A stretch of 59,799 bases of DNA from Chloroflexota bacterium (GTDB taxonomy: Bacteria; Chloroflexota; Anaerolineae; JAYEMR01). The translations under genes were made by a program, and so were the position numbers. The notes under the pieces were generated by a model. The model had not been told where the DNA came from. It worked only from the letters and a program-made list of their open reading frames with translations, and made no database searches. The DNA lies in assembly GCA_034718215.1 (NCBI GenBank), contig JAYEMR010000067.1, forward strand, positions 1 to 59,799, given 5' to 3'. Every line of letters begins with the position of its first letter. The stretch's first letter is position 1. This document shows, piece after piece, positions 14,443 through 24,800 of this stretch.

Positions 14443-14604
14443 GCCCGCATCTGCGCGTATCCTGTCTGCCTGTACCTGATCACCTGTGCCTGCCCGCACC
14501 TGCGCGGGTCCTGCCTGCGCAGACAGGACAGGTGATCAGGTGCAGGCAGGTGCGGGTAGGCATGGGTGCGCAGGCACCTGTCCGCACAAGCGGGAGACAG
14601 GTGG
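14443..14604. repeat. large composite cluster of palindromic repeat units
   Basis: Contains cctgtacctgatcacctg / caggtgatcaggtgcagg, tgcctgcccgcacctg / caggtgcgggtaggca and the central CCTGCCTGCGCAGACAGG (14510-14527). The arms are interleaved rather than simply nested. Confidence 0.8.
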
Positions 14605-14613
14605 AGGGGACAA

Positions 14614-15027
14614 ATGGCTGAGCGACGAAGGCTGATCTGCACCATCTGCCCCATGGGTTGTCAGTTGGATGTGCTTTTCGACCCGGAGACGGAGCAGGTG
14701 CTGGAGATTGAGGGGAACGGGTGAAGGCGGGCTTGGGCCTACGCGGAGAAAGAGCTGACCAATCCCACCCGCATGGTGACCACCACGGTGCGGGTGCGAG
14801 GTGGCGTGTGGCCCCTGGTACCGGTGCACACCGCCGAGCCGATCCCTAAATCGGGGATCTTCCCCCTGCTGGAGGAGCTTCACCGGGTGGAAGTGCAGGC
14901 TCCCGTGCGCTGCGGTCAGGTGATCCTGGCCGATGGGGCCAACACGGGGGTGGATGTGCTGGCCAGCCGGGACCTGCCCTCCTCCCACCTGTGCCTGATC
15001 AGGTGCAGGCAATCGCCTCGGACTTAG
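14614..15027 (+). pseudogene. DUF1667-family protein with in-frame TGA at a conserved Cys and a repeat-derived C-terminus
   Basis: MAERRRLICTICPMGCQLDV...EIEGNG[TGA 14722-14724]RRAWAYAEKELTNPTRMVTTTVRV...APVRCGQVILA...VLASRDL. The last ~12 codons (SHLCLIRCRQSPRT) come from repeat 14986-15010. Confidence 0.65.
14986..15010. repeat. palindromic repeat unit (CACCTGTGCCTGATCAGGTGCAGGC)
   Basis: Near-perfect palindrome centred on TGATCA. It forms the 3' end of the DUF1667 ORF, at the convergent junction with the PRTase gene. Confidence 0.8.
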
Positions 15028-15653
15028 CCCTGCAAGAGCTGGATGACCTCCGCATCGGTGGTCTGCCTGAAGTCCACGTAGAAGGCACCCACGGCCCAGA
15101 ATAGGCTGGGGGTGTGGAGGCAGACCATCCGATCCACCATATTGGCCAGCTTCTGAATGATATCGGGAGGGCCTACGGGTAGGGCGACGATCAACTCCCT
15201 CAGCTCCGTGGCCTCTAGGGCCTGGATGGCGGCTCGCATCGTGGCTCCCGTAGCTACTCCGTCGTCGGTCAAGATGATCGTCTTGTCCTTGAGATCGAGG
15301 GCGGGACGGCCTCCCCGATAGGCCTTCATCCGCCGCTGAATCTCTGCCCGCTGTCGCTCGGTCTCTGCCTCCAGATAGGACTGGGGCACGCCCAGATCCT
15401 CGATGAGGCGCTCATCGAGGACCACCTCACCGGAGCTGGCCACTGCACCCACCGCTAGCTCGGGGTTGTGAGGCGCTCTCAGCTTGCGGGCGATGAATAC
15501 ATCCAGTGGCGCATCCAGTGCCCGCGCTACCTCATCGGCCACTACTACCCCTCCGCGGGGGATGCCCAACACCAGTAGCTCCTCGCGCTCTTCCAGAAAT
15601 TCCAATCGCTCGGCCAACAACCTCCCCGCCTCGCGGCGGTCTTGAAAGCGCAT
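15024..15653 (-). CDS. phosphoribosyltransferase family protein
   Basis: 209 aa with a PRPP-binding loop (IILTDDGVATGATM) and N-terminal FxDRxEAG. Confidence 0.85.
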   Translation of the reverse strand: MRFQDRREAGRLLAERLEFLEEREELLVLGIPRGGVVVADEVARALDAPLDVFIARKLRAPHNPELAVGAVASSGEVVLDERLIEDLGVPQSYLEAETERQRAEIQRRMKAYRGGRPALDLKDKTIILTDDGVATGATMRAAIQALEATELRELIVALPVGPPDIIQKLANMVDRMVCLHTPSLFWAVGAFYVDFRQTTDAEVIQLLQG

Positions 15654-15678
15654 TCTCAGTCTCCAGGCCTATGATTCT

Positions 15679-15758
15679 CACCTGTGCCCGATCAGGTGCG
15701 GGCAGGCTGGCAAGCCGTTTAATGCCTCGGATCGCCTGTGCCTGATCAGGTGCAGGCG
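15679..15758. repeat. two palindromic repeat units separated by ~26 nt
   Basis: cacctgtgcccgatcaggtgcgggcagg (15679-15706) and cgcctgtgcctgatcaggtgcaggcg (15733-15758). Confidence 0.8.
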
Positions 15759-16356
15759 AAAGTTGTAGTAGGTGAAATCTGAGCTGCTCAGCATGATACC
15801 CCTCCCTCATTCGACAACTCACGTCATAGTGATTCTAGGATCCGCTCCAGAAAGCGCTTTCCCCTCTTGATATCCTCAACCTGCTGTGGGCCTGCGATCT
15901 CCCGCTCGATGGTCAGAGCTCCATCAAAGCCCAGTGATGTCAGCTTGGGGACAAGCAACGGATAATTGACCCGCCCTTCGCCCAGCGGTTTCTCCACTCC
16001 CAACTCGCGGCCGTTGGTAGGGTATTCTCCGTCTTTGGCATGGACGCCGCGCACATAGGTTCCTATTATATCCAGCGCATCCACTGGGTTCGCCTTGCCA
16101 TACATCAGCAGGTTCGCGGGATCTAGATTGATGCCCAGGTTATCCCTCCCCACATCCTCTATCGCTCTCAGCAGAGTGACCGGTGTCTCCTGGCCGGTCT
16201 CAAACCAGAAGCTCTGGCCCTTCTCTCCGCAGTAGTCGGCGATCTCCTTGAGAGCCTCCACCACACCAATGTAGCGGTGATCCGCCGGGTTCTCGGGGAT
16301 GAAACCCACGTGAGTAGTGATGCTGGATACACCAACGCGTCGGGCGAAATCAGAGC

Positions 16357-16390
16357 CCCGTCTGCCTGTACCCGATCAGGCACGGGTGAG
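16357..16390. repeat. palindromic repeat unit inside the TIM-barrel gene, stop-containing phase
   Basis: ccccgtctgcctgtacccgatcaggcacgggtgag. On the coding strand gcc TGA tcg falls in frame. Confidence 0.8.
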
Positions 16391-16496
16391 CACCTCCAAG
16401 CGCATCTCCCGTGTCTCCTCCGGCACCAGGCCAACGGTGCTGGGGCCCTCGATGAAATCCCACACATATCGCCCCGGCAAACCTGTCCAGATGGTT

Positions 16497-16523
16497 GTGC
16501 CCGCACCTGATCGGGTACAGGTG
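16497..16523. repeat. 27-nt palindromic core, exact reverse complement of 17152-17178, in frame in the TIM-barrel gene
   Basis: gtgcccgcacctgatcgggtacaggtg. Confidence 0.9.
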
Positions 16524-16695
16524 ATCTCCACGTCGTTGGCCTCAGCTGATCCGTGGAGCCGATCAGCTATCTCTTCGTTCAGGAGCTCTTGCTGCCAGCA
16601 CGTTACCTGGCACGTTGGGAAACCTAGATCATGTACCCTCTTCAGCTCCTCTTCCGGTCCCTTCTCCAGTGATGCTATCACCCCTAGTCTCATTC

Positions 16696-17787
16696 TTACT
16701 CCTTTCCGTTCACGGTCCGGCCATTTTCTATGGCTTCGATCTCTTTCCTGCCTGCGCAGACAGGATTCACCAGCCCCAGCGAGTCGCGGGCCGACTCCGG
16801 CGGGCACTTGATCGGACGCTCATCGTTCTTGACGCAGCGGAGGAAATAGGAGATCTCATTGGCATAGGCGTCGCCCTCCTCATACTCAGCCGGGCGCCCC
16901 TGCACCTCGACCAGGTCGTCGAAGACTTGGAGCGCCGGATTGCGCCTGCTATCGAAGCGGATCAATCCTGCTTCAAACCATGCGTCGTAGGCGGCGAAGA
17001 AAGGAGTTTGAGCCATACTCCACCCGGCGTGGATATGCACCTGAGGGCCTTCTTCGTAGTTGTAGAAGGCATGAATGATATCGTAGGAACCGGTCGCCTC
17101 TGACCTTCGGGCGGTAGCCTGGATGTGGTCCGGAAGGCCCAGTAGATAATTCACCTGTACCCGATCAGGTGCGGGCACATAATCCACATCGTGGATATGC
17201 AGGTCGAGGATAGTGCCGCCGCTGCGGGCAGGATCGAGGTACCATTTCTCCCAAGACCAGATCGGCCGTCCGCCCACACGGCTCATGTTCAGCGATAGAA
17301 GTTTTCCAAATGTGCCATCATGCATTCTCTGGCGCAGAAACTCATATTCGGGCCAGAAGCGGATGCACTGAGCGATCATCAGGAGGCGATCCGCCTCCCT
17401 GGCTGCCTCGATCATCTGGTCGGCCTCCTTGAGGGTCAGGGCCATTGGCTTCTCACAGAGCACGTGATGTCCGGCCTCCAGCGCCTCGATCGTGTACCGA
17501 GCGTGCAGGAAAGTCGGCAGGCAGATGTCCACCATGTCCACATCCGCCTCGGCGATGAGCTGGCTGCCATCCGGGTAACGATCCACGCCGGAGAGATCAG
17601 CCGGTCCGCTCTCGTCAGGGATGTTGCCGGCCACAAACTCCTCGGCCTCCAATCGCTCCGGCCTGATATCAGCGATGGCAACCAGCTCCGCGCTGGGGGT
17701 CTGGAGGTATCGGCCCGCGTGAAAGCCTCCCATCATCCCCAGGCCGATGACTCCTACTTTCACCTTTGAGACATCCCTTTTGACCAT
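16696..17787 (-). CDS. Gfo/Idh/MocA family oxidoreductase
   Basis: MVKRDVSKVKVGVIGLGMMGGFHAG... Rossmann N-terminus, with EKPMA and HIHD motifs. Start taken at ATG 17787, since the longer ORF prefix overlaps the upstream gene. It carries two repeat insertions. Confidence 0.85.
   Translation of the reverse strand: MVKRDVSKVKVGVIGLGMMGGFHAGRYLQTPSAELVAIADIRPERLEAEEFVAGNIPDESGPADLSGVDRYPDGSQLIAEADVDMVDICLPTFLHARYTIEALEAGHHVLCEKPMALTLKEADQMIEAAREADRLLMIAQCIRFWPEYEFLRQRMHDGTFGKLLSLNMSRVGGRPIWSWEKWYLDPARSGGTILDLHIHDVDYVPAPDRVQVNYLLGLPDHIQATARRSEATGSYDIIHAFYNYEEGPQVHIHAGWSMAQTPFFAAYDAWFEAGLIRFDSRRNPALQVFDDLVEVQGRPAEYEEGDAYANEISYFLRCVKNDERPIKCPPESARDSLGLVNPVCAGRKEIEAIENGRTVNGKE
16747..16764. repeat. 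18-nt 'empty' palindrome CCTGCCTGCGCAGACAGG inside the 3' end of the oxidoreductase gene
   Basis: Translated as PVCAGR. The same motif occurs at 14510-14527 and, truncated, at 41296-41310. Confidence 0.7.
17152..17178. repeat. 27-nt palindromic core, in frame in the oxidoreductase gene
   Basis: cacctgtacccgatcaggtgcgggcac, translated on the minus strand as VPAPDRVQV. It is flanked by ATAAT at 17146-17150 and 17179-17183. Confidence 0.9.
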
Positions 17788-17857: not shown

Positions 17858-18697
17858 TCATTCCCCGGAGAAGATGAGATCCATCGCCTGAGAGGTGGCC
17901 TGGAGGATGCTCTCCGGCCAGTGAGTGCGCGGCGAGAGCTCAGCGGTGCACCAACCATCGTATCCAACGTCGCGGAGCGCCTCCATCACCGCCGGGTAGT
18001 TCACATCCCCTGACAGGAGCTCGACGAACCCCTCCAGCGTGCCGACGTCGGTCTTGAAATCCTTGAAATGCACTTTCCTGATGCGTGAACCCAGCACTCG
18101 GATCCAATGCTCGGGATAGCCGGTGCGCATGATATTACCCACGTCAAAGTAGCATTGCACATAGGGATGGCCGACCCGGTCTATGAAATCCCGCATCTCG
18201 AGGGGGCTGTTAAGGAACTTGTTCCATACGTTCTCCACACCTATGTATACCTCATGCTGCTCGGCGATCGGCCCCAGCTCGCGGAAGTTCTCCAGGGCTC
18301 GATTGTACGCGGCCTCGTAGTCCTGAATCACGGCAGGGCCGGACTGAAAGGGCCCGGTGAAACCTGGCACCACCAGCATGGTGTCCACTCCAAGCACCCC
18401 AGCCAACTCCAGTCCCTTTCGTACGTGTCCCTTGGCCGTCTCGCGCTCCTCCCTGTCTTCGCTGATGAGATTAAATTGCCAGAGCACCCCCGTGGCCAGA
18501 GAGCAGATCTCAATACCCACCTCTCGGGCCATCTGGAGGATGGCTTTCATGTCCTCCGGGGTGGACTCAGGGCCAATAGGCCCTTTCAGGGCATAGGCCA
18601 ATTCGATACCCTCGAAGCCCGCCTTGTGTGCTAGGATCATGCAGCGACGCAGGTCACTCTGATCGCGAAAGGCCCAGATGTTAATGCCTTTTCTCAT
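17858..18697 (-). CDS. xylose-isomerase-like TIM-barrel sugar phosphate isomerase/epimerase
   Basis: 279 aa: MRKGINIWAF...GFEGIEL...ENVWN...YFDVGN. Confidence 0.85.
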   Translation of the reverse strand: MRKGINIWAFRDQSDLRRCMILAHKAGFEGIELAYALKGPIGPESTPEDMKAILQMAREVGIEICSLATGVLWQFNLISEDREERETAKGHVRKGLELAGVLGVDTMLVVPGFTGPFQSGPAVIQDYEAAYNRALENFRELGPIAEQHEVYIGVENVWNKFLNSPLEMRDFIDRVGHPYVQCYFDVGNIMRTGYPEHWIRVLGSRIRKVHFKDFKTDVGTLEGFVELLSGDVNYPAVMEALRDVGYDGWCTAELSPRTHWPESILQATSQAMDLIFSGE

Positions 18698-18752
18698 CTC
18701 TCTACCTTCCTATATCCGAAGTCAATGTCCGATGGTCTCCCCCAGACATTTT

Positions 18753-18800
18753 GCCTGTCTCCGCCTGCACCCGATCAGGCACGGGCGAGCAGGTGCGGGT
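18753..18800. repeat. palindromic repeat units downstream of the deacetylase-like gene
   Basis: gcctgtctccgcctgcacccgatcaggcacgggcgagcaggtgcgggt. Confidence 0.75.
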
Positions 18801-18812
18801 AAGGATGATTCA

Positions 18813-20129
18813 TCACCCGTTGCTCGACAGTGAGCTTTGTTCAGCTTCCTCAGAGGTGGCGGGTTCCAGTGTGCGACCAAATGGCACTTGAGTGGGAAGG
18901 GTATTGGTGTCGTAGACTGTACGTCCACGCACCACGATCCTCTGGGGAATGAGATCTGGAGTATCCCGATCCCAGCGCCATACCACGAAGGTCGCAGGTG
19001 TTCCGGGCTTGCCCAGAGGAGCTGCAAGGTCTGAAATCCCTGTCAGCATACCCGGCACTCTAGTCACGTGAGGGAGGTAGCTTACGGGCGTCTTCCCCTC
19101 ATCGGTGAAATCCACGAAATTCGCCAAACATCGGGACAGGCTTACTGCCGCGCCGATCAACGTCTCCGATTCATAGAAGCCAAATCTCCCCGAAGGTCTC
19201 ATCTCGACGATCTCATCTCGCAGATGGTAGAGCCCTGGTGGCGCTCCAGCCATGCTCACCGCATCGCTGACCAAGAACAGCTTACCCGGTGGCTTCGCAC
19301 GGTAAAAGACCTTGACCGTCGCTGGAGGTACATGGTGTCCATCTGAAATCACCCCAGCGAAGAGGCGATCCTCAGCCGCCTGTTCCCAAAGCACATTTGG
19401 ATGGCGCGGCATCATGTTGTGACATCCGTTACCCAGGTGGGTTACGCCTACTGCTCCTGCTCCTATGGCCTGGCGGATCGTCGATCTGGCCGCCTGATGA
19501 TGGCCCAGACATACACTCATACCTCGTTCAGTAACTTCTCGAATGAGGTCGATCCCTCCATTGATCTCTGGGGCGAGGGTCAACAACCGGATTCGGTTCC
19601 CTGAGCTTTCCTGCAGGAGGTCAAACACATCTATGTCTGGAGGAGCGACATGTTCACGCGGATGCGCGCCGCGTGGGCCATCCACTGGTGAGATCCAGGG
19701 GCCCTCCTGATGAATTCCAGCGACCATCGCCGCTACATCAGGATAGGCGCGGCAGGCGGCGTCGATATTGGCCATCGCCGCCCGCATCACCTCCGGCGCA
19801 TCGGTGGTGATTGTGGGCAGAAAACGGGTGGTGCCACTTAGCGTAATCGACCAGCAGAGATCACGGACGCCCTGGGGCCCTGCCTCAACATCTTTAAATC
19901 CACGGCCCCAATACCCATTGATCTGCGCGTCGAATAGGCCGGGCGTCGCGAAGACCATGGGATCCTCGGGGATAAGGGATCGCTCTTTCTGATCGGCTGG
20001 GTGGATCCCTGAGAAAAACTCACCTGCCCATTCCAGGACAACGGCATCAGCAGGGTCATCCCCCGGATGTAACCGGGCTCCCAGTTGCTCTCTTTCAGGT
20101 GGGCTGGGCCAAGGATAATGAAGGGGCAT
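18813..20129 (-). CDS. N-acetylglucosamine-6-phosphate deacetylase-like amidohydrolase
   Basis: FDAQINGYWGRGF, HQEGPWISP..GAH, LTLAPE, GHHQA and THLGNG motifs resemble NagA. It has an N-terminal extension of about 60 aa. Confidence 0.7.
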   Translation of the reverse strand: MPLHYPWPSPPEREQLGARLHPGDDPADAVVLEWAGEFFSGIHPADQKERSLIPEDPMVFATPGLFDAQINGYWGRGFKDVEAGPQGVRDLCWSITLSGTTRFLPTITTDAPEVMRAAMANIDAACRAYPDVAAMVAGIHQEGPWISPVDGPRGAHPREHVAPPDIDVFDLLQESSGNRIRLLTLAPEINGGIDLIREVTERGMSVCLGHHQAARSTIRQAIGAGAVGVTHLGNGCHNMMPRHPNVLWEQAAEDRLFAGVISDGHHVPPATVKVFYRAKPPGKLFLVSDAVSMAGAPPGLYHLRDEIVEMRPSGRFGFYESETLIGAAVSLSRCLANFVDFTDEGKTPVSYLPHVTRVPGMLTGISDLAAPLGKPGTPATFVVWRWDRDTPDLIPQRIVVRGRTVYDTNTLPTQVPFGRTLEPATSEEAEQSSLSSNG

Positions 20130-20823: not shown

Positions 20824-21709
20824 TGGTTCTCCTTTCACTAAGCGAAGTGCTCTCGCTGCTTTCTTCCAAGTTCATGAGGTTTAGAGCGCAGACCGCGTTG
20901 CCTCCCAGCACTGCCTCTAGAGGCTCGATGTCCAGTCCGACAGAGCGGAAACTGCGCAGATAGCGTGTTGGAGGAATGAGTGGAAAGTCGGAGCCGAAAC
21001 AGATCTTGTGGGGGATGAGCTGGGCCAGGAGAGGTAGAATCTGGTTATCGTAGAGGAAGGGGGAAGCTGCGGTGTCGTAGTACACGTTGGCCAGCGCATC
21101 GTGCACTTCGGGCATGAGCTCGTAGAAGGGGAGTCCACCTCCCCAGTGGGCGCAGATGAGCGTCACCTGGGGGAAAGCCTTGGCGAAGCGGTAGATGACA
21201 TCCGGACTGACCGTGCCCTTGCCGGCGTACTGGTGTCCCACTGGCTCGCTGGAGTGCACAAGGATAGGTAGATTATGCTCCGCTGCGAACTCAGCCAATG
21301 GAGCCAGCAGTGATAGGTCATCCAAGGAGAAGCCCTGTCCGTCGGGCATTAGCTCTCCCACCCCTCGCAGCCCGGCCGCTATGCAGCGATCCAGCTCGCG
21401 CAGGGCCTCGCGAAGCTGCCGGGGGTTGACGACGGCGAAGCCGATCAGTCGATCTCCATACCGTCGCACGGCTTCGATGGTGTAGTCGTTGGCCGCTCGA
21501 CACAGGCCCATGTCGGCCCAGCCGAAACCAAAAGTCACCGCTCGATCCACATCGGCCTCGTCCAGGGCCTCAATGAGCTCCTCTGTGGTGGCCAGCCGGG
21601 CTTTCGGGTTCTCATAGAGCTTTCCGAACCACTCGTCCTGCTGGCAGTAAGCCTCCCTATTGGAGATTATGTATGGCGCGGTTATATGGGTGTGGATATC
21701 AACTATCAT
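20816..21709 (-). CDS. amidohydrolase-family (metal-dependent hydrolase, amidohydrolase_2-like) protein
   Basis: MIVDIHTHI...VHSSEP...DFP. ATG at 21709; the ORF extends to 21742. Confidence 0.75.
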   Translation of the reverse strand: MIVDIHTHITAPYIISNREAYCQQDEWFGKLYENPKARLATTEELIEALDEADVDRAVTFGFGWADMGLCRAANDYTIEAVRRYGDRLIGFAVVNPRQLREALRELDRCIAAGLRGVGELMPDGQGFSLDDLSLLAPLAEFAAEHNLPILVHSSEPVGHQYAGKGTVSPDVIYRFAKAFPQVTLICAHWGGGLPFYELMPEVHDALANVYYDTAASPFLYDNQILPLLAQLIPHKICFGSDFPLIPPTRYLRSFRSVGLDIEPLEAVLGGNAVCALNLMNLEESSESTSLSERRTNV

Positions 21710-21880
21710 TTCTTTACTTCCCGCCGTTTTTCTAAACTTCATCCGACAGTCACTGATCGCTGGCGCAATTTCAGTTGTTCATCAATCGCGCATGACAACT
21801 TTGCAGTTTTGTGGCACAATATTGCGGAAAGTAAAGTACAGAGATACCCCAGGTGGGGCATCCCTGTAAAGGTGCTGATA

Positions 21881-24800
21881 TCACTTGGGCATATCGGCCA
21901 GCGCGGCATAGGCCGGGCGTGGGCTCCAATCGGGGCGGATGATGCTGTAGGCCGCCTTCTCATCAGCAGCGCCACATACTGGGCCGAAGTTCAGGTTCCA
22001 GAGGAACATCACCCCAACCCAGCCCCAGTTGCGCCCCATCTGGTAGGCTCGGACAAAGTACTGGGCCTGCAGAGCTTCGTTGAGATCGTTGGCAAATTCG
22101 TAGCCCGGCGCTGGGGCTACCCCAAAATTGTCCACCGTCGGCCAGCCGAACTCCGTGGGCCATAACTTATGCCCACCAGCGCCGTACTTGACCATGATGT
22201 TGCGATAGTCCTCCATGGTGTTGCGGAAGAAGAAGCTAGGATGGTCATCAAACCCCCGATTAGGTTTATCCCCCTCAGGCCAATGGGCATCCGGTGGGTT
22301 GGCAAAGCCGCTGGGATGGATGCCCACCGCGTCGCACCAGCGTGCCAGACCAGCCTGGTACATCTGCTCCAGGTAGATCCGATCATTGATGGCAGTGACT
22401 CCATCGTTCATTCCCGTCGGCGTCGGAGCGCCGCTGACGACGATGGCGTTGGGGTCGTGGGCCTTTATGGTCTTGTAAGCCCCTGAAAGAAGCCGCACGT
22501 AGTCGGAGGCGCTGAGCGGTGCGCCCCACTCCCGTTGCAGGTTCTGTTCGTTCCACACCTCGTAGGCCTTGACCCGGCCCTTGAAGTGCTCGGCCAGCGC
22601 CCCCATGAAGTTCCAGAAATCCTGATAATCGGCCGGATAGTGATTGCCGCCTGAGATAGCCCAAGGAGGCGCAGCAGCCACGCTGAACAGCACATTGATG
22701 CCATTGACGTTGCAGGCGTTCACCATTCGATCCAGCTCGCCGAAGCTGTACTGCCCCCGGCTCGGCTCGTGGAGCTCCCAGCGCACCTGCTGCTTGGCCC
22801 AATTGAAGCCCATTCCATTGATGGCGTTGACTATCTGCCCGTGATCCTGATTCAGGAAGTGGGCCTGGACCCCGTAGCCGAAGGAGGTCCGTGAGTGAGA
22901 GGCAGGCGCCGCGGCCACAGCGTGGGACTTACTACCTCCTCCACTGCTGCCCTTGCTGCTCTCGGAAGCCTCCGGCTTCTTCGGCAGTTCCTCATCCGGG
23001 ATCACTGGGATGTCCTCCGGCGCCAGGTTCAACTTCACATAGGCAGCGGACACCCACCGCTTCTTCCCCTGGTAGAGGATCTGTAACCAGTCTTTCTTCT
23101 CCGTACTACCAGTGACCTCAATCTCCTCTCCCTCTGTAAGCTGCCCCACCCGCTCGAAATCGGTGCTCGGCCCGGAGCGCACATTCAGTTTGGTCACCTC
23201 CTCCATCACCACCCCATCCGGAAGGGAGGGGGTGGTGATTGGAGTAGGGGTGGGCGGTCTCGGAGTGGGAGTCGGGGTAGGAGTTGGAGCGGGGGTTGGG
23301 GTGGGAGTGAGCGTCGCCACCCACACGGTCTGCTCATTTTCACTGGGGATGGCCTGTCCATCAGCTGCGATCTCGGCGGCGATGAGGTACTGGCCTGAGA
23401 CCGCTGGTGCCTTCCAGACGTAGCTGGGGTCGGTGATCGGCGCAGGTGCCCTGGCTATCTGATCGCCCGCGGGGCCGCGAACCGTCCACCAGACGGTGAA
23501 CTGATTACCGCCCTGTGGAGTGGCCTGCTGAGCAAAGGTCTGCAATGTCCGCCACATCTGGGGGTCATTCTCCCTGCTGGCCAGGTCCTCCACCGTGACC
23601 CCACCGAGATTGTATTTCTGGACCAGGCGCAGCTTGTAGGCCAGGCTGGAGGAATTCTCCAGCCACACGGTGTGCCTCTCCTGTAAGGGTTTCTGCTCCT
23701 GCTCGTCCACGTAGGTGAACCAATAGGCATTGATCTCTTTATCCTGTTGCAGCCCTTGCGCCTCTTGCCAGGCTTCCAGTTGTACTTCCAGGGAAGCACC
23801 AGGCTTCAGGATGGGAGGGTCCACCGCTGCCACCTCGGCCAGTCGGCCAAGCGCCTGAGCGTAGGTCAGGAATTCCCGCCTGCTTCCCTGTTGATCCAGG
23901 CTGTCCGCGCTGAAGACCAACTGTATTTTAGCACGCTCCACCCGTCGGGTGGTCCAATCCAGCAGTTTTTCCATCTCCCCCCCGGGCCGATAGGCCTGCG
24001 GATTCAGCAGAGCGGGGATCTTGATGCTGTCCACCGGCGGCCCCAGGACCAACCAATCGTAAGCGCCAGTGTTCCAGGTGCCATCGGGCGTGAGCACCGG
24101 CCGGCTGACGCGGAGGGTCAGCCGCTTGCCCTGGGTATGGAGACCCTCCGCCACCTGTCGTACAAACGAGGTGACCTCATTCTGAAGGGAGGGATCCACA
24201 TTTCGATAATCCAGGGTTATCCCGTCGTATGGCTTGTCCTGAGCCCAACGAAGGATGGCCTGCACGTGCTCCTCCCGCGCTGTGGGATTGGCCAGCAGTC
24301 GGTTGACATCCGCGACTTGCCCTTCGCCTGGCCGCCAATTGGACTCAGATGGTAGAACCAGCGCCCCCTCCGCTGACACGCCGACGGGCGTGCCTTTCAA
24401 TCCACCCTGCTCGCTGACCAGCAAGCCCCTAGGGTTGATCACCCTCAGCACCTCGCCTCCCTCGGGGGACAATTGCTGATCCTGCCTCAACGTGGTCGCC
24501 ACCAGCGGTGGGATGGGCTGACTCTCTACTATTAAGAGGGCCTGAGGTAGTTCGGCCAGCCTGGCGGTAAGTCGGCTGGCCGGGGGCTGGATCTCGCTGG
24601 GTAACCATCTCCAGCTCCCCTCCTCCTCCGGCTGAAGGGCAGGGAACCAGCCGTAGAGATCCAAATTATGGACATTCTGGCAGTCAGGGGGAAGCGGAGC
24701 TGTCAGTGACACGGCAGCGGGCGGGGCCCCCGCAAGCCGAATGCGATAAAGGGGACTCCGAGGGACTAGATGAGAGGGAAGTGCTTCGGCCAAGGGGATG

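Follow-up and report, generated by a model that had tools for sequence, protein, structure and literature searches.

Two insertions of a very small palindrome, one of them bringing an in-frame TGA, in a xylose-isomerase-like gene of a Chloroflexota bacterium

A gene for a xylose-isomerase-like TIM barrel lies on the minus strand of the window, the whole stretch of 59,799 nucleotides that was analysed, and contains two copies of a short palindromic repeat, in one of which there is a TGA codon in the frame of the gene. This locus raises the question of whether the gene was inactivated recently by an insertion, or whether the stop is somehow bypassed and a working enzyme is still made.

The isomerase-like gene and its two private segments

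Translation of 15824-16693 on the minus strand gave a frame of 289 codons, a count that takes in two inserts of 8 codons each, with its ATG at 16693, one internal TGA (16376-16378), and a terminal TGA at the same end position as in its homologues. With the internal stop masked, the product matched PF01261 (AP_endonuc_2) over residues 18-284 (E 2e-25, 90.4 bits against a cut-off of 31.1) and covered positions 2-248 of the 249 in the profile, that is, the family from end to end. The orthologues were 273-281 aa long, with 64-83% identity, and the nearest solved structure was 3tva. The frame that encodes this barrel is interrupted after codon 105 in two assemblies. An earlier, sequence-only reading had described one continuous frame for such a barrel with a TGA at 16376-16378, one repeat copy read through as TCTRSGAGT, a second one giving TRA*SGTG, and resumption of the conserved sequence in the same frame at RRGSDFARRVGVSSITTHVGFIPEN; the translation and the Pfam match agreed with this description.

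The signals for the start of translation were intact. The ribosome-binding site abuts the TAA (16696-16698) of the oxidoreductase gene upstream, the isomerase ATG lies two bases past this TAA, and the gene looks translationally coupled to the oxidoreductase, with which it forms a pair that was found in synteny in two further genomes of this class (L002 and L004). The features of this region are as follows.

16696-17787, minus strand: Gfo/Idh/MocA oxidoreductase gene, the upstream partner in the conserved pair (Pfam matches; syntenic orthologues in L002 and L004)
17152-17177, plus strand: element copy in the oxidoreductase gene, the exact reverse complement of copy 1, at an 8-residue gap in both orthologues
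16699-16707, minus strand: ribosome-binding site GGAAAGGAG, read directly, 5 nt upstream of the ATG at 16691-16693
15824-16693, minus strand: xylose-isomerase-like TIM-barrel gene (sugar phosphate isomerase/epimerase family; PF01261 match and orthologues)
16498-16523, minus strand: element copy 1, of subfamily CACCTGTACCCGATCAGGTGCGGGCA; its 22-nt palindrome spans 16500-16521 and is flanked at either end by CA (coding strand)
16363-16388, minus strand: element copy 2, of subfamily CACCCGTGCCTGATCGGGTACAGGCA; its 22-nt palindrome spans 16365-16386 and is flanked at either end by CA (coding strand)
16376-16378, minus strand: in-frame TGA from the core of copy 2, seen in the translation and also in a contig assembled from run SRR26901925

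Two palindromic copies were present, as had been claimed, and the elements proper could be narrowed to 16500-16521 and 16365-16386. The flanking dinucleotide of both copies is CA on the coding strand and TG on the plus strand, and in both cases the strand with the CA flanks is the coding strand. The two copies carry C and T, respectively, at the variable ninth position, which distinguishes two subfamilies, and each matches an abundant 26-mer of its subfamily exactly (18 copies for copy 1 and 12 for copy 2).

Copy 1 is decoded as (T)CTRSGAG(T) from ACC TGT ACC CGA TCA GGT GCG GGC, its core codon being CGA (Arg), and copy 2 as TRA*SGTG from ACC CGT GCC TGA TCG GGT ACA GGC. In both copies the target CA straddles a codon boundary (ATC|ACA and CTC|AGA) and the core is in the phase.CC YGA TCR GG. 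The sequence-only reading had implied that only one of the copies lies in the phase that is closed; the codons show instead that the phase is common to both. Its further statement that the core is closed in one of three phases was correct in that only one phase can give a stop, but that phase does so solely if Y is T. The "natural experiment" of phase was misframed in this respect, as the stop depends on phase, subfamily, and orientation together.

The isomerase was aligned with four orthologues encoded by other genomes of its class (51-68% identity) and with the 40 closest proteins of a 5.8-billion-protein collection, the closest of which was only 83% identical outside the inserts, so that no intact allele from the same species was among them. 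Exactly two segments were private to the gene, TCTRSGAG and TRA*SGTG, of 8 codons each, and both were absent from all 44 orthologues. Each copy corresponded to an exact gap of 24 nt in every aligned orthologue, made up of the 22-nt palindrome and the duplicated CA. A comparison with the orthologous locus in sister strains had been proposed earlier. In a DNA alignment the closest orthologue (83% identity) carried empty sites at both positions, GGAGAT-CA-CGAC at that of copy 1 and GTGCT-CA-AACGG at that of copy 2, and in the window both sites read CA, then the 22-nt palindrome, then a second CA, a net gain of 24 nt per event. No secondary decay was seen in the rest of the gene at the 128 columns that are conserved (at least 95%) among the other 40 sequences. 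The isomerase deviated at three of these (I>V, K>R, and I>V), all conservative, which is within the range of intact homologues at the same columns (mean 2.1 deviations, maximum 6).

Matches to the core, CCTGATCRGG, were frequent in the window (15 strand-matches versus 0.8 expected), and no part of the assembly was as rich in the 22-mer as the segment 14987-19987, where 5 kb held 7 copies versus a mean of 0.38. In this segment there was a copy at each gene boundary, and two neighbouring genes contained copies as well. The copy in the oxidoreductase gene (17152-17177) has the opposite orientation to those in the isomerase gene, lies in the phase CCY GAT CRG, and coincides with an exact 8-aa insert, VPAPDRVQ.

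The palindrome family across the genome

The assembly searched was a 1.9-Mb metagenome-assembled genome (MAG) of 147 contigs (59.5% G+C, 87% complete). The consensus of the element, CCYGYRCCYGATCRGGYRCRGG, is an imperfect palindrome of 22 bp that consists of two 11-nt arms only. There were 91 exact copies in the assembly, and 143 with at most three mismatches, versus about 4 in simulated sequence. The same dinucleotide was present on both flanks in 83 of the 91 exact copies: CA in 38, TG in 35, and CG in 10. Orientation by the CA flank resolved subfamilies such as CACCTGTGCCTGATCAGGTGCAGGCA (22 copies), CACCTGTACCCGATCAGGTGCGGGCA (18), and CACCCGTGCCTGATCGGGTACAGGCA (12), each of which occurred genome-wide almost only in one orientation relative to this flank. 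The internal YR steps were TG or TA on the CA-flank strand, which gives G-T pairs on that strand and C-A mismatches on the opposite one. The strand-locked subfamilies, together with the G-T pairs on one strand, suggest strand-specific, possibly single-strand, recognition. Decay of a perfect ancestral palindrome by CpG deamination was considered as a source of the Y/R variation and rejected: CpG was only mildly depleted (odds 0.80), and the variants were a few discrete strand-locked subfamilies, not random combinations.

Tandem arrays of the element had a period of 24 nt. Head-to-tail arrays of two to three copies with exactly this period were located at C110:2715-2786, C47:6379-6424, and C132:6005-6050 and 22264-22309, a pattern that would be expected if the CA duplicated by one copy served as the target of further insertions. 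Many copies were nested inside the GAT-CA-GG core of another copy, with frequent composites of the form CCYGYRCCYGATCA|CCYG..., and the flank consensus of the element was the element's own core.

A genome of the same genus contained no copy of the element, and 39 other genomes of the same class contained at most one each. In a scan for the 22-mer across 185,579 species genomes, the matches listed were single, scattered ones in unrelated GC-rich bacteria, which is compatible with chance. The family is a recent, lineage-specific expansion, because 91 exact copies were found here, none in the same-genus genome, and at most one in each of the 39 others.

These observations are best explained by a very small mobile element that inserted twice into the TIM-barrel gene. 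Insertion at a CA dinucleotide leaves a CA at each end of the palindrome and lengthens the gene by 24 bp, or 8 codons, and because this footprint is a multiple of three, no insertion shifts the frame. Closure of the frame needs both a target CA that straddles a codon boundary (xxC|Axx) and Y = T on the coding strand. Both insertions in the isomerase gene fell in the stop-capable phase; copy 1, from a subfamily with C, yields CGA (Arg) and is read through, and copy 2, from a subfamily with T, yields TGA after codon 105. Translation would most likely end at this TGA, and the 105-residue product would be without strands beta4-beta8 and all four predicted metal ligands.

A genome-wide tally of the phases of intragenic copies, which had been suggested by the sequence-only reading, was carried out. 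Copies were masked, the best open frame around each was chosen by codon-usage log-odds trained on long ORFs, and a coding signal was required on both sides of the copy; under these strict criteria, 22 intragenic copies remained. Ten of these were in the phase CCY GAT CRG, seven in.CC YGA TCR, and five in ..C CYG ATC, and the stop-capable phase was not avoided as such. The seven copies in that phase comprised five with CGA and two with TGA, the share of T at the variable position being 0.66 over all copies and orientations. Two stops were seen among the 22 copies versus 4.8 expected (binomial p 0.11); within the stop-capable phase the binomial p was 0.05, and Fisher's test against the other two phases gave p 0.27. 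The tally did show fewer TGA copies, as selection would predict, but not significantly so (p ~0.1), and its direction fits purifying selection against stop-bearing copies as a trend, not proof, in one incomplete genome.

The two TGA cases in the tally were the isomerase gene and a degenerate IS4-like transposase relic on contig C39. The relic (18650-19650, with the motif YRNRWPVEQ) adjoins a 5S rRNA gene and contains three element copies, two of them in the configuration that gives TGA, and it is the only other case of a deep intragenic TGA in the assembly. Open intragenic copies were found in real genes, including the gene for class II (B12-dependent) ribonucleotide reductase (contig C147, ~21100-23750), which has several in-frame element copies or fragments, all of them open. 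Examples are PVPACTRSGTGDQVQAE in the middle of the protein and ACTRSGTG near the C-terminal zinc-finger region.

The assembly was also searched for an enzyme that could mobilise the element. A GTAG or CGTC tag within 12 nt of the 91 copies occurred in 7 of the 182 flanks, by chance and with no positional consensus. There were two RAYT-like ORFs (Y1_Tnp, HUH), C76:3747-4370 (207 aa) and C32:20320-20991 (223 aa), and no element copy with fewer than seven mismatches lay within ~1.5 kb of either. The gene on C76 is bordered on both sides by a repeat of its own (GGCTCGGAGTACAACTCCTCGCCATC...), unrelated to the 22-mer. A RAYT was rejected as the mobiliser on the grounds that both RAYT-like genes carry repeats of other kinds. 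Orphan half-sites of the element were all accounted for by nested copies, no insertion sequence was bounded by half-sites, and no parent insertion sequence with matching ends was found in the 87%-complete assembly.

The TGA codon and the fate of the gene

The locus probably reflects a nonsense mutation that was caused recently by the insertion of a very small, frame-neutral palindrome. The gene would then be a very young pseudogene in the population, because the 105-residue product lacks beta4-beta8 and the predicted metal ligands. A recent inactivating insertion was the first of three explanations offered by the sequence-only reading, and it is the one that gained support, from the empty sites, the identity of both copies to their subfamilies, the lack of other decay, and the absence of the element from the same-genus genome. 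As an event, this would be an ordinary insertional knock-out of a dispensable sugar-metabolism gene; it is the element, by its very small size, that is unusual and that is the useful part of the finding.

The lack of decay elsewhere in the gene indicates either that the break is very recent or that the gene is still selected. A very recent break appears to fit better, because the copies are identical to their subfamilies, the family has expanded recently, and the insertion load at the locus is exceptional. Continued production of a working enzyme, by near-cognate readthrough of UGA (with two 8-residue inserts in the protein) or by reinitiation into two assembling fragments, seems unlikely. The absence of secondary lesions and the intact conserved columns would be expected under continued function too, the ribosome-binding site and start are intact with coupling to the upstream gene, and the stop precedes all four predicted metal-ligand positions (E165, D191, H218, and E263). 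For other TIM barrels there are known cases of complementation between half-barrels. Reinitiation in this gene would depend on a single site.

16309-16311, minus strand: GTG, the sole in-frame restart candidate (ATG, GTG, or TTG) after the stop, 22 codons downstream of the TGA

No purine-rich sequence that could serve as a Shine-Dalgarno was found upstream of this GTG, and a restart there would drop 22 residues, including the conserved block RRGSDFARRVGVSSITTH with the SITTH strand, whose ITTH is invariant, and the invariant His128. The expression of two half-barrels from this codon, the second of the earlier explanations, is weak on both counts.

For readthrough, the third, nothing positive was found. 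The genome uses TGA as a normal stop more often than any other, closing with it 505 of the 1021 ORFs that have 300 codons or more (49%), and TGA ends the isomerase gene itself. The stop in copy 2 falls in the middle of the palindrome rather than ahead of a stimulatory structure. The AlphaFold model of the read-through protein had a mean pLDDT of 81 and a pTM of 0.83; insert 1 split strand beta3 (VEIT|...|TIW), with pLDDT <50 across residues 58-88, and insert 2 lay within the long helix 92-120. Because both inserts interrupt predicted secondary-structure elements, even the read-through product would itself be perturbed in this model, and even the "tolerated" copy 1 would not be in a loop.

Three forms of recoding were tried and rejected. 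No tRNA-Sec was found by ARAGORN and no domain match to SelA or SelB (including SelB-wing) was found in the assembly, which is 87% complete, so that missing Sec genes or a suppressor tRNA are possible; in addition, the UGA sits within a private insert that is absent from all homologues, outside any functionally conserved position. Reassignment of TGA was rejected in view of its use as the main stop and as the isomerase gene's own stop. For a bypass of the T4 gene 60 type, examined by eye, the pre-stop GCC recurs in frame 11 codons downstream, and landing there would delete the conserved GSDF block and give a product judged to be non-functional.

It is similarly improbable that the TGA is not real or not dominant, that is, an artefact of assembly or consensus or a minority allele amid a majority that is intact (with CGA or an empty site). 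An exact-match look-up of both ORF fragments led to an independently assembled Logan contig (run SRR26901925) that covers 14527-17380 of the window, from a source sample that may be the same as that of the MAG. It agreed with the window at all but one of 2854 positions (2853 identical) and contained the TGA as well as the two inserts. Repeats are hard for short-read assemblers, but the two assemblies agree base for base across both inserts and the TGA, and T is the standard base of the copy 2 subfamily, with 12 identical copies, rather than an odd single-base deviation. The one allele difference in this 2.9-kb stretch, window 14724 A versus C, turned the in-frame TGA of a different gene into TGC (Cys).

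14614-15027, plus strand: DUF1667 gene with an in-frame TGA at 14722-14724, at a conserved Cys position (GNG*RR)

Because the independent Logan contig has TGC (Cys) at this position, the TGA of the DUF1667 gene would be an allele or a consensus error, not selenocysteine, and because of the same A/C difference, nonsense polymorphisms do exist in the population or in its assemblies, a point in favour of a minority or artefactual stop in the isomerase gene as well.

A broader possibility, less probable than either of these, is that the gene stays under selection and the stop from the element is bypassed, by readthrough or by reversible, precise excision between the CA repeats. If that were true, the element, ultra-small, strand-locked, and targeted to CA, would be an on/off cassette that works on genes in frame and according to its orientation, and the dense cluster in the sugar operon would be a regulatory feature rather than decay. 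The specific version in which precise excision of 24 bp between the CA repeats restores the gene in a subpopulation, as phase variation of the sugar operon, is very improbable: the clean CA duplications would permit scarless excision and the locus is the densest cluster of the element, but no empty-site alleles were in evidence, no mobilising enzyme was found in the assembly, where the two RAYT-like genes have different repeats at their flanks, and local hopping or a relaxation of selection on the operon would account for the clustering just as well.

The element among known small repeats

By analogy with known systems, the element appears to be an unusual variant among the very small bacterial repeats, with SDR-like, REP-like, and MITE-like properties. 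The small dispersed repeats (SDR) of heterocyst-forming cyanobacteria are reportedly palindrome-like, ~21-27 nt in length, and present in many copies; they are said to be evidently mobile, nested in one another, occasionally located inside genes, and without an encoded enzyme. The element resembles them in its unit of 22 + 2 nt, its dispersal, and its nested self-insertion. It differs from them in its host, a member of the Chloroflexota (Anaerolineae), in a sequence that is presumably unrelated, in its strict CA duplication and 24-nt footprint, and in having subfamilies that are locked to one strand relative to the CA. For the SDR families, PMC3116915 and PMC3733652 refer to Elhai et al. 2008 (Genome Res 18:1484).

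The short imperfect palindrome and the many copies (91 exact, 143 near) of the element are also characteristic of the REP/REPIN families. These are mobilised by RAYTs and consist of imperfect palindromes, 20-40 nt in length, in which one strand has G-T pairs; most are located in intergenic regions or at gene ends, but some are within ORFs and some supply stops (PMC3116915; PMC3733652). Genes inactivated by REP-type insertions are expected to be purged (PMC3733652). In contrast to these repeats, the element lacks the GTAG/CGTC tag, its copies do not flank the RAYT-like genes, and it duplicates the flanking dinucleotide, which REPs do not.

Rickettsia palindromic elements (RPE; Ogata et al. 2000) are described as in-frame palindromic inserts in coding genes that are often tolerated (PMC3733652, PMC3184786). 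The element is likewise palindromic and in-frame in coding genes, where it adds a peptide segment; however, RPE are ~100-150 bp long and add ~30-50 residues, compared with the 8 residues added here, and the genes that bear them are generally intact, whereas here one copy brings a stop. Bacterial MITEs (Nezha, Correia/NEMIS, RUP) are non-autonomous, have terminal inverted repeats and a short target duplication, can be seen as filled and empty sites when relatives are compared, and can disrupt ORFs or fuse with them (PMC3184786, PMC10969869). The 11-nt inverted arms of the element, its duplicated CA, and the single-CA empty sites in the closest orthologue are all MITE-like. MITEs are 50-500 bp in length, compared with 22 bp for the element, and the 87%-complete assembly yielded no insertion sequence whose ends would make it a parent.

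Because its 24-bp footprint is frame-neutral by construction, such a 22-bp palindrome can colonise coding sequence, including that of an essential gene such as the one for ribonucleotide reductase. The only coding cost is the TGA that arises in one phase for some combinations of subfamily and orientation, which makes the family well suited to clean measurements of how selection acts on peptides inserted in frame. Nowhere else in this genome is the deleterious outcome as clear as at the isomerase locus, where it would have been caught before decay or purging set in. A caution for annotators follows as well, in that copies of the element give rise in MAGs to 8-residue inserts, to genes that are falsely split, and to sites that look recoded.

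A second, smaller palindrome was observed next to the isomerase gene.

16746-16765, minus strand: companion palindrome of ~18 nt (CCTGTCTGCGCAGGCAGG), in frame in the 3' part of the oxidoreductase gene, at a 6-residue gap in both orthologues

The 6-aa insert at this place, NPVCAG, is absent from the two syntenic oxidoreductase orthologues. The companion (family D6; CCTGYCTGCGCAGRCAGG), a second copy of which is located at 14509-14528, is the 6-codon counterpart of the 8-codon element.
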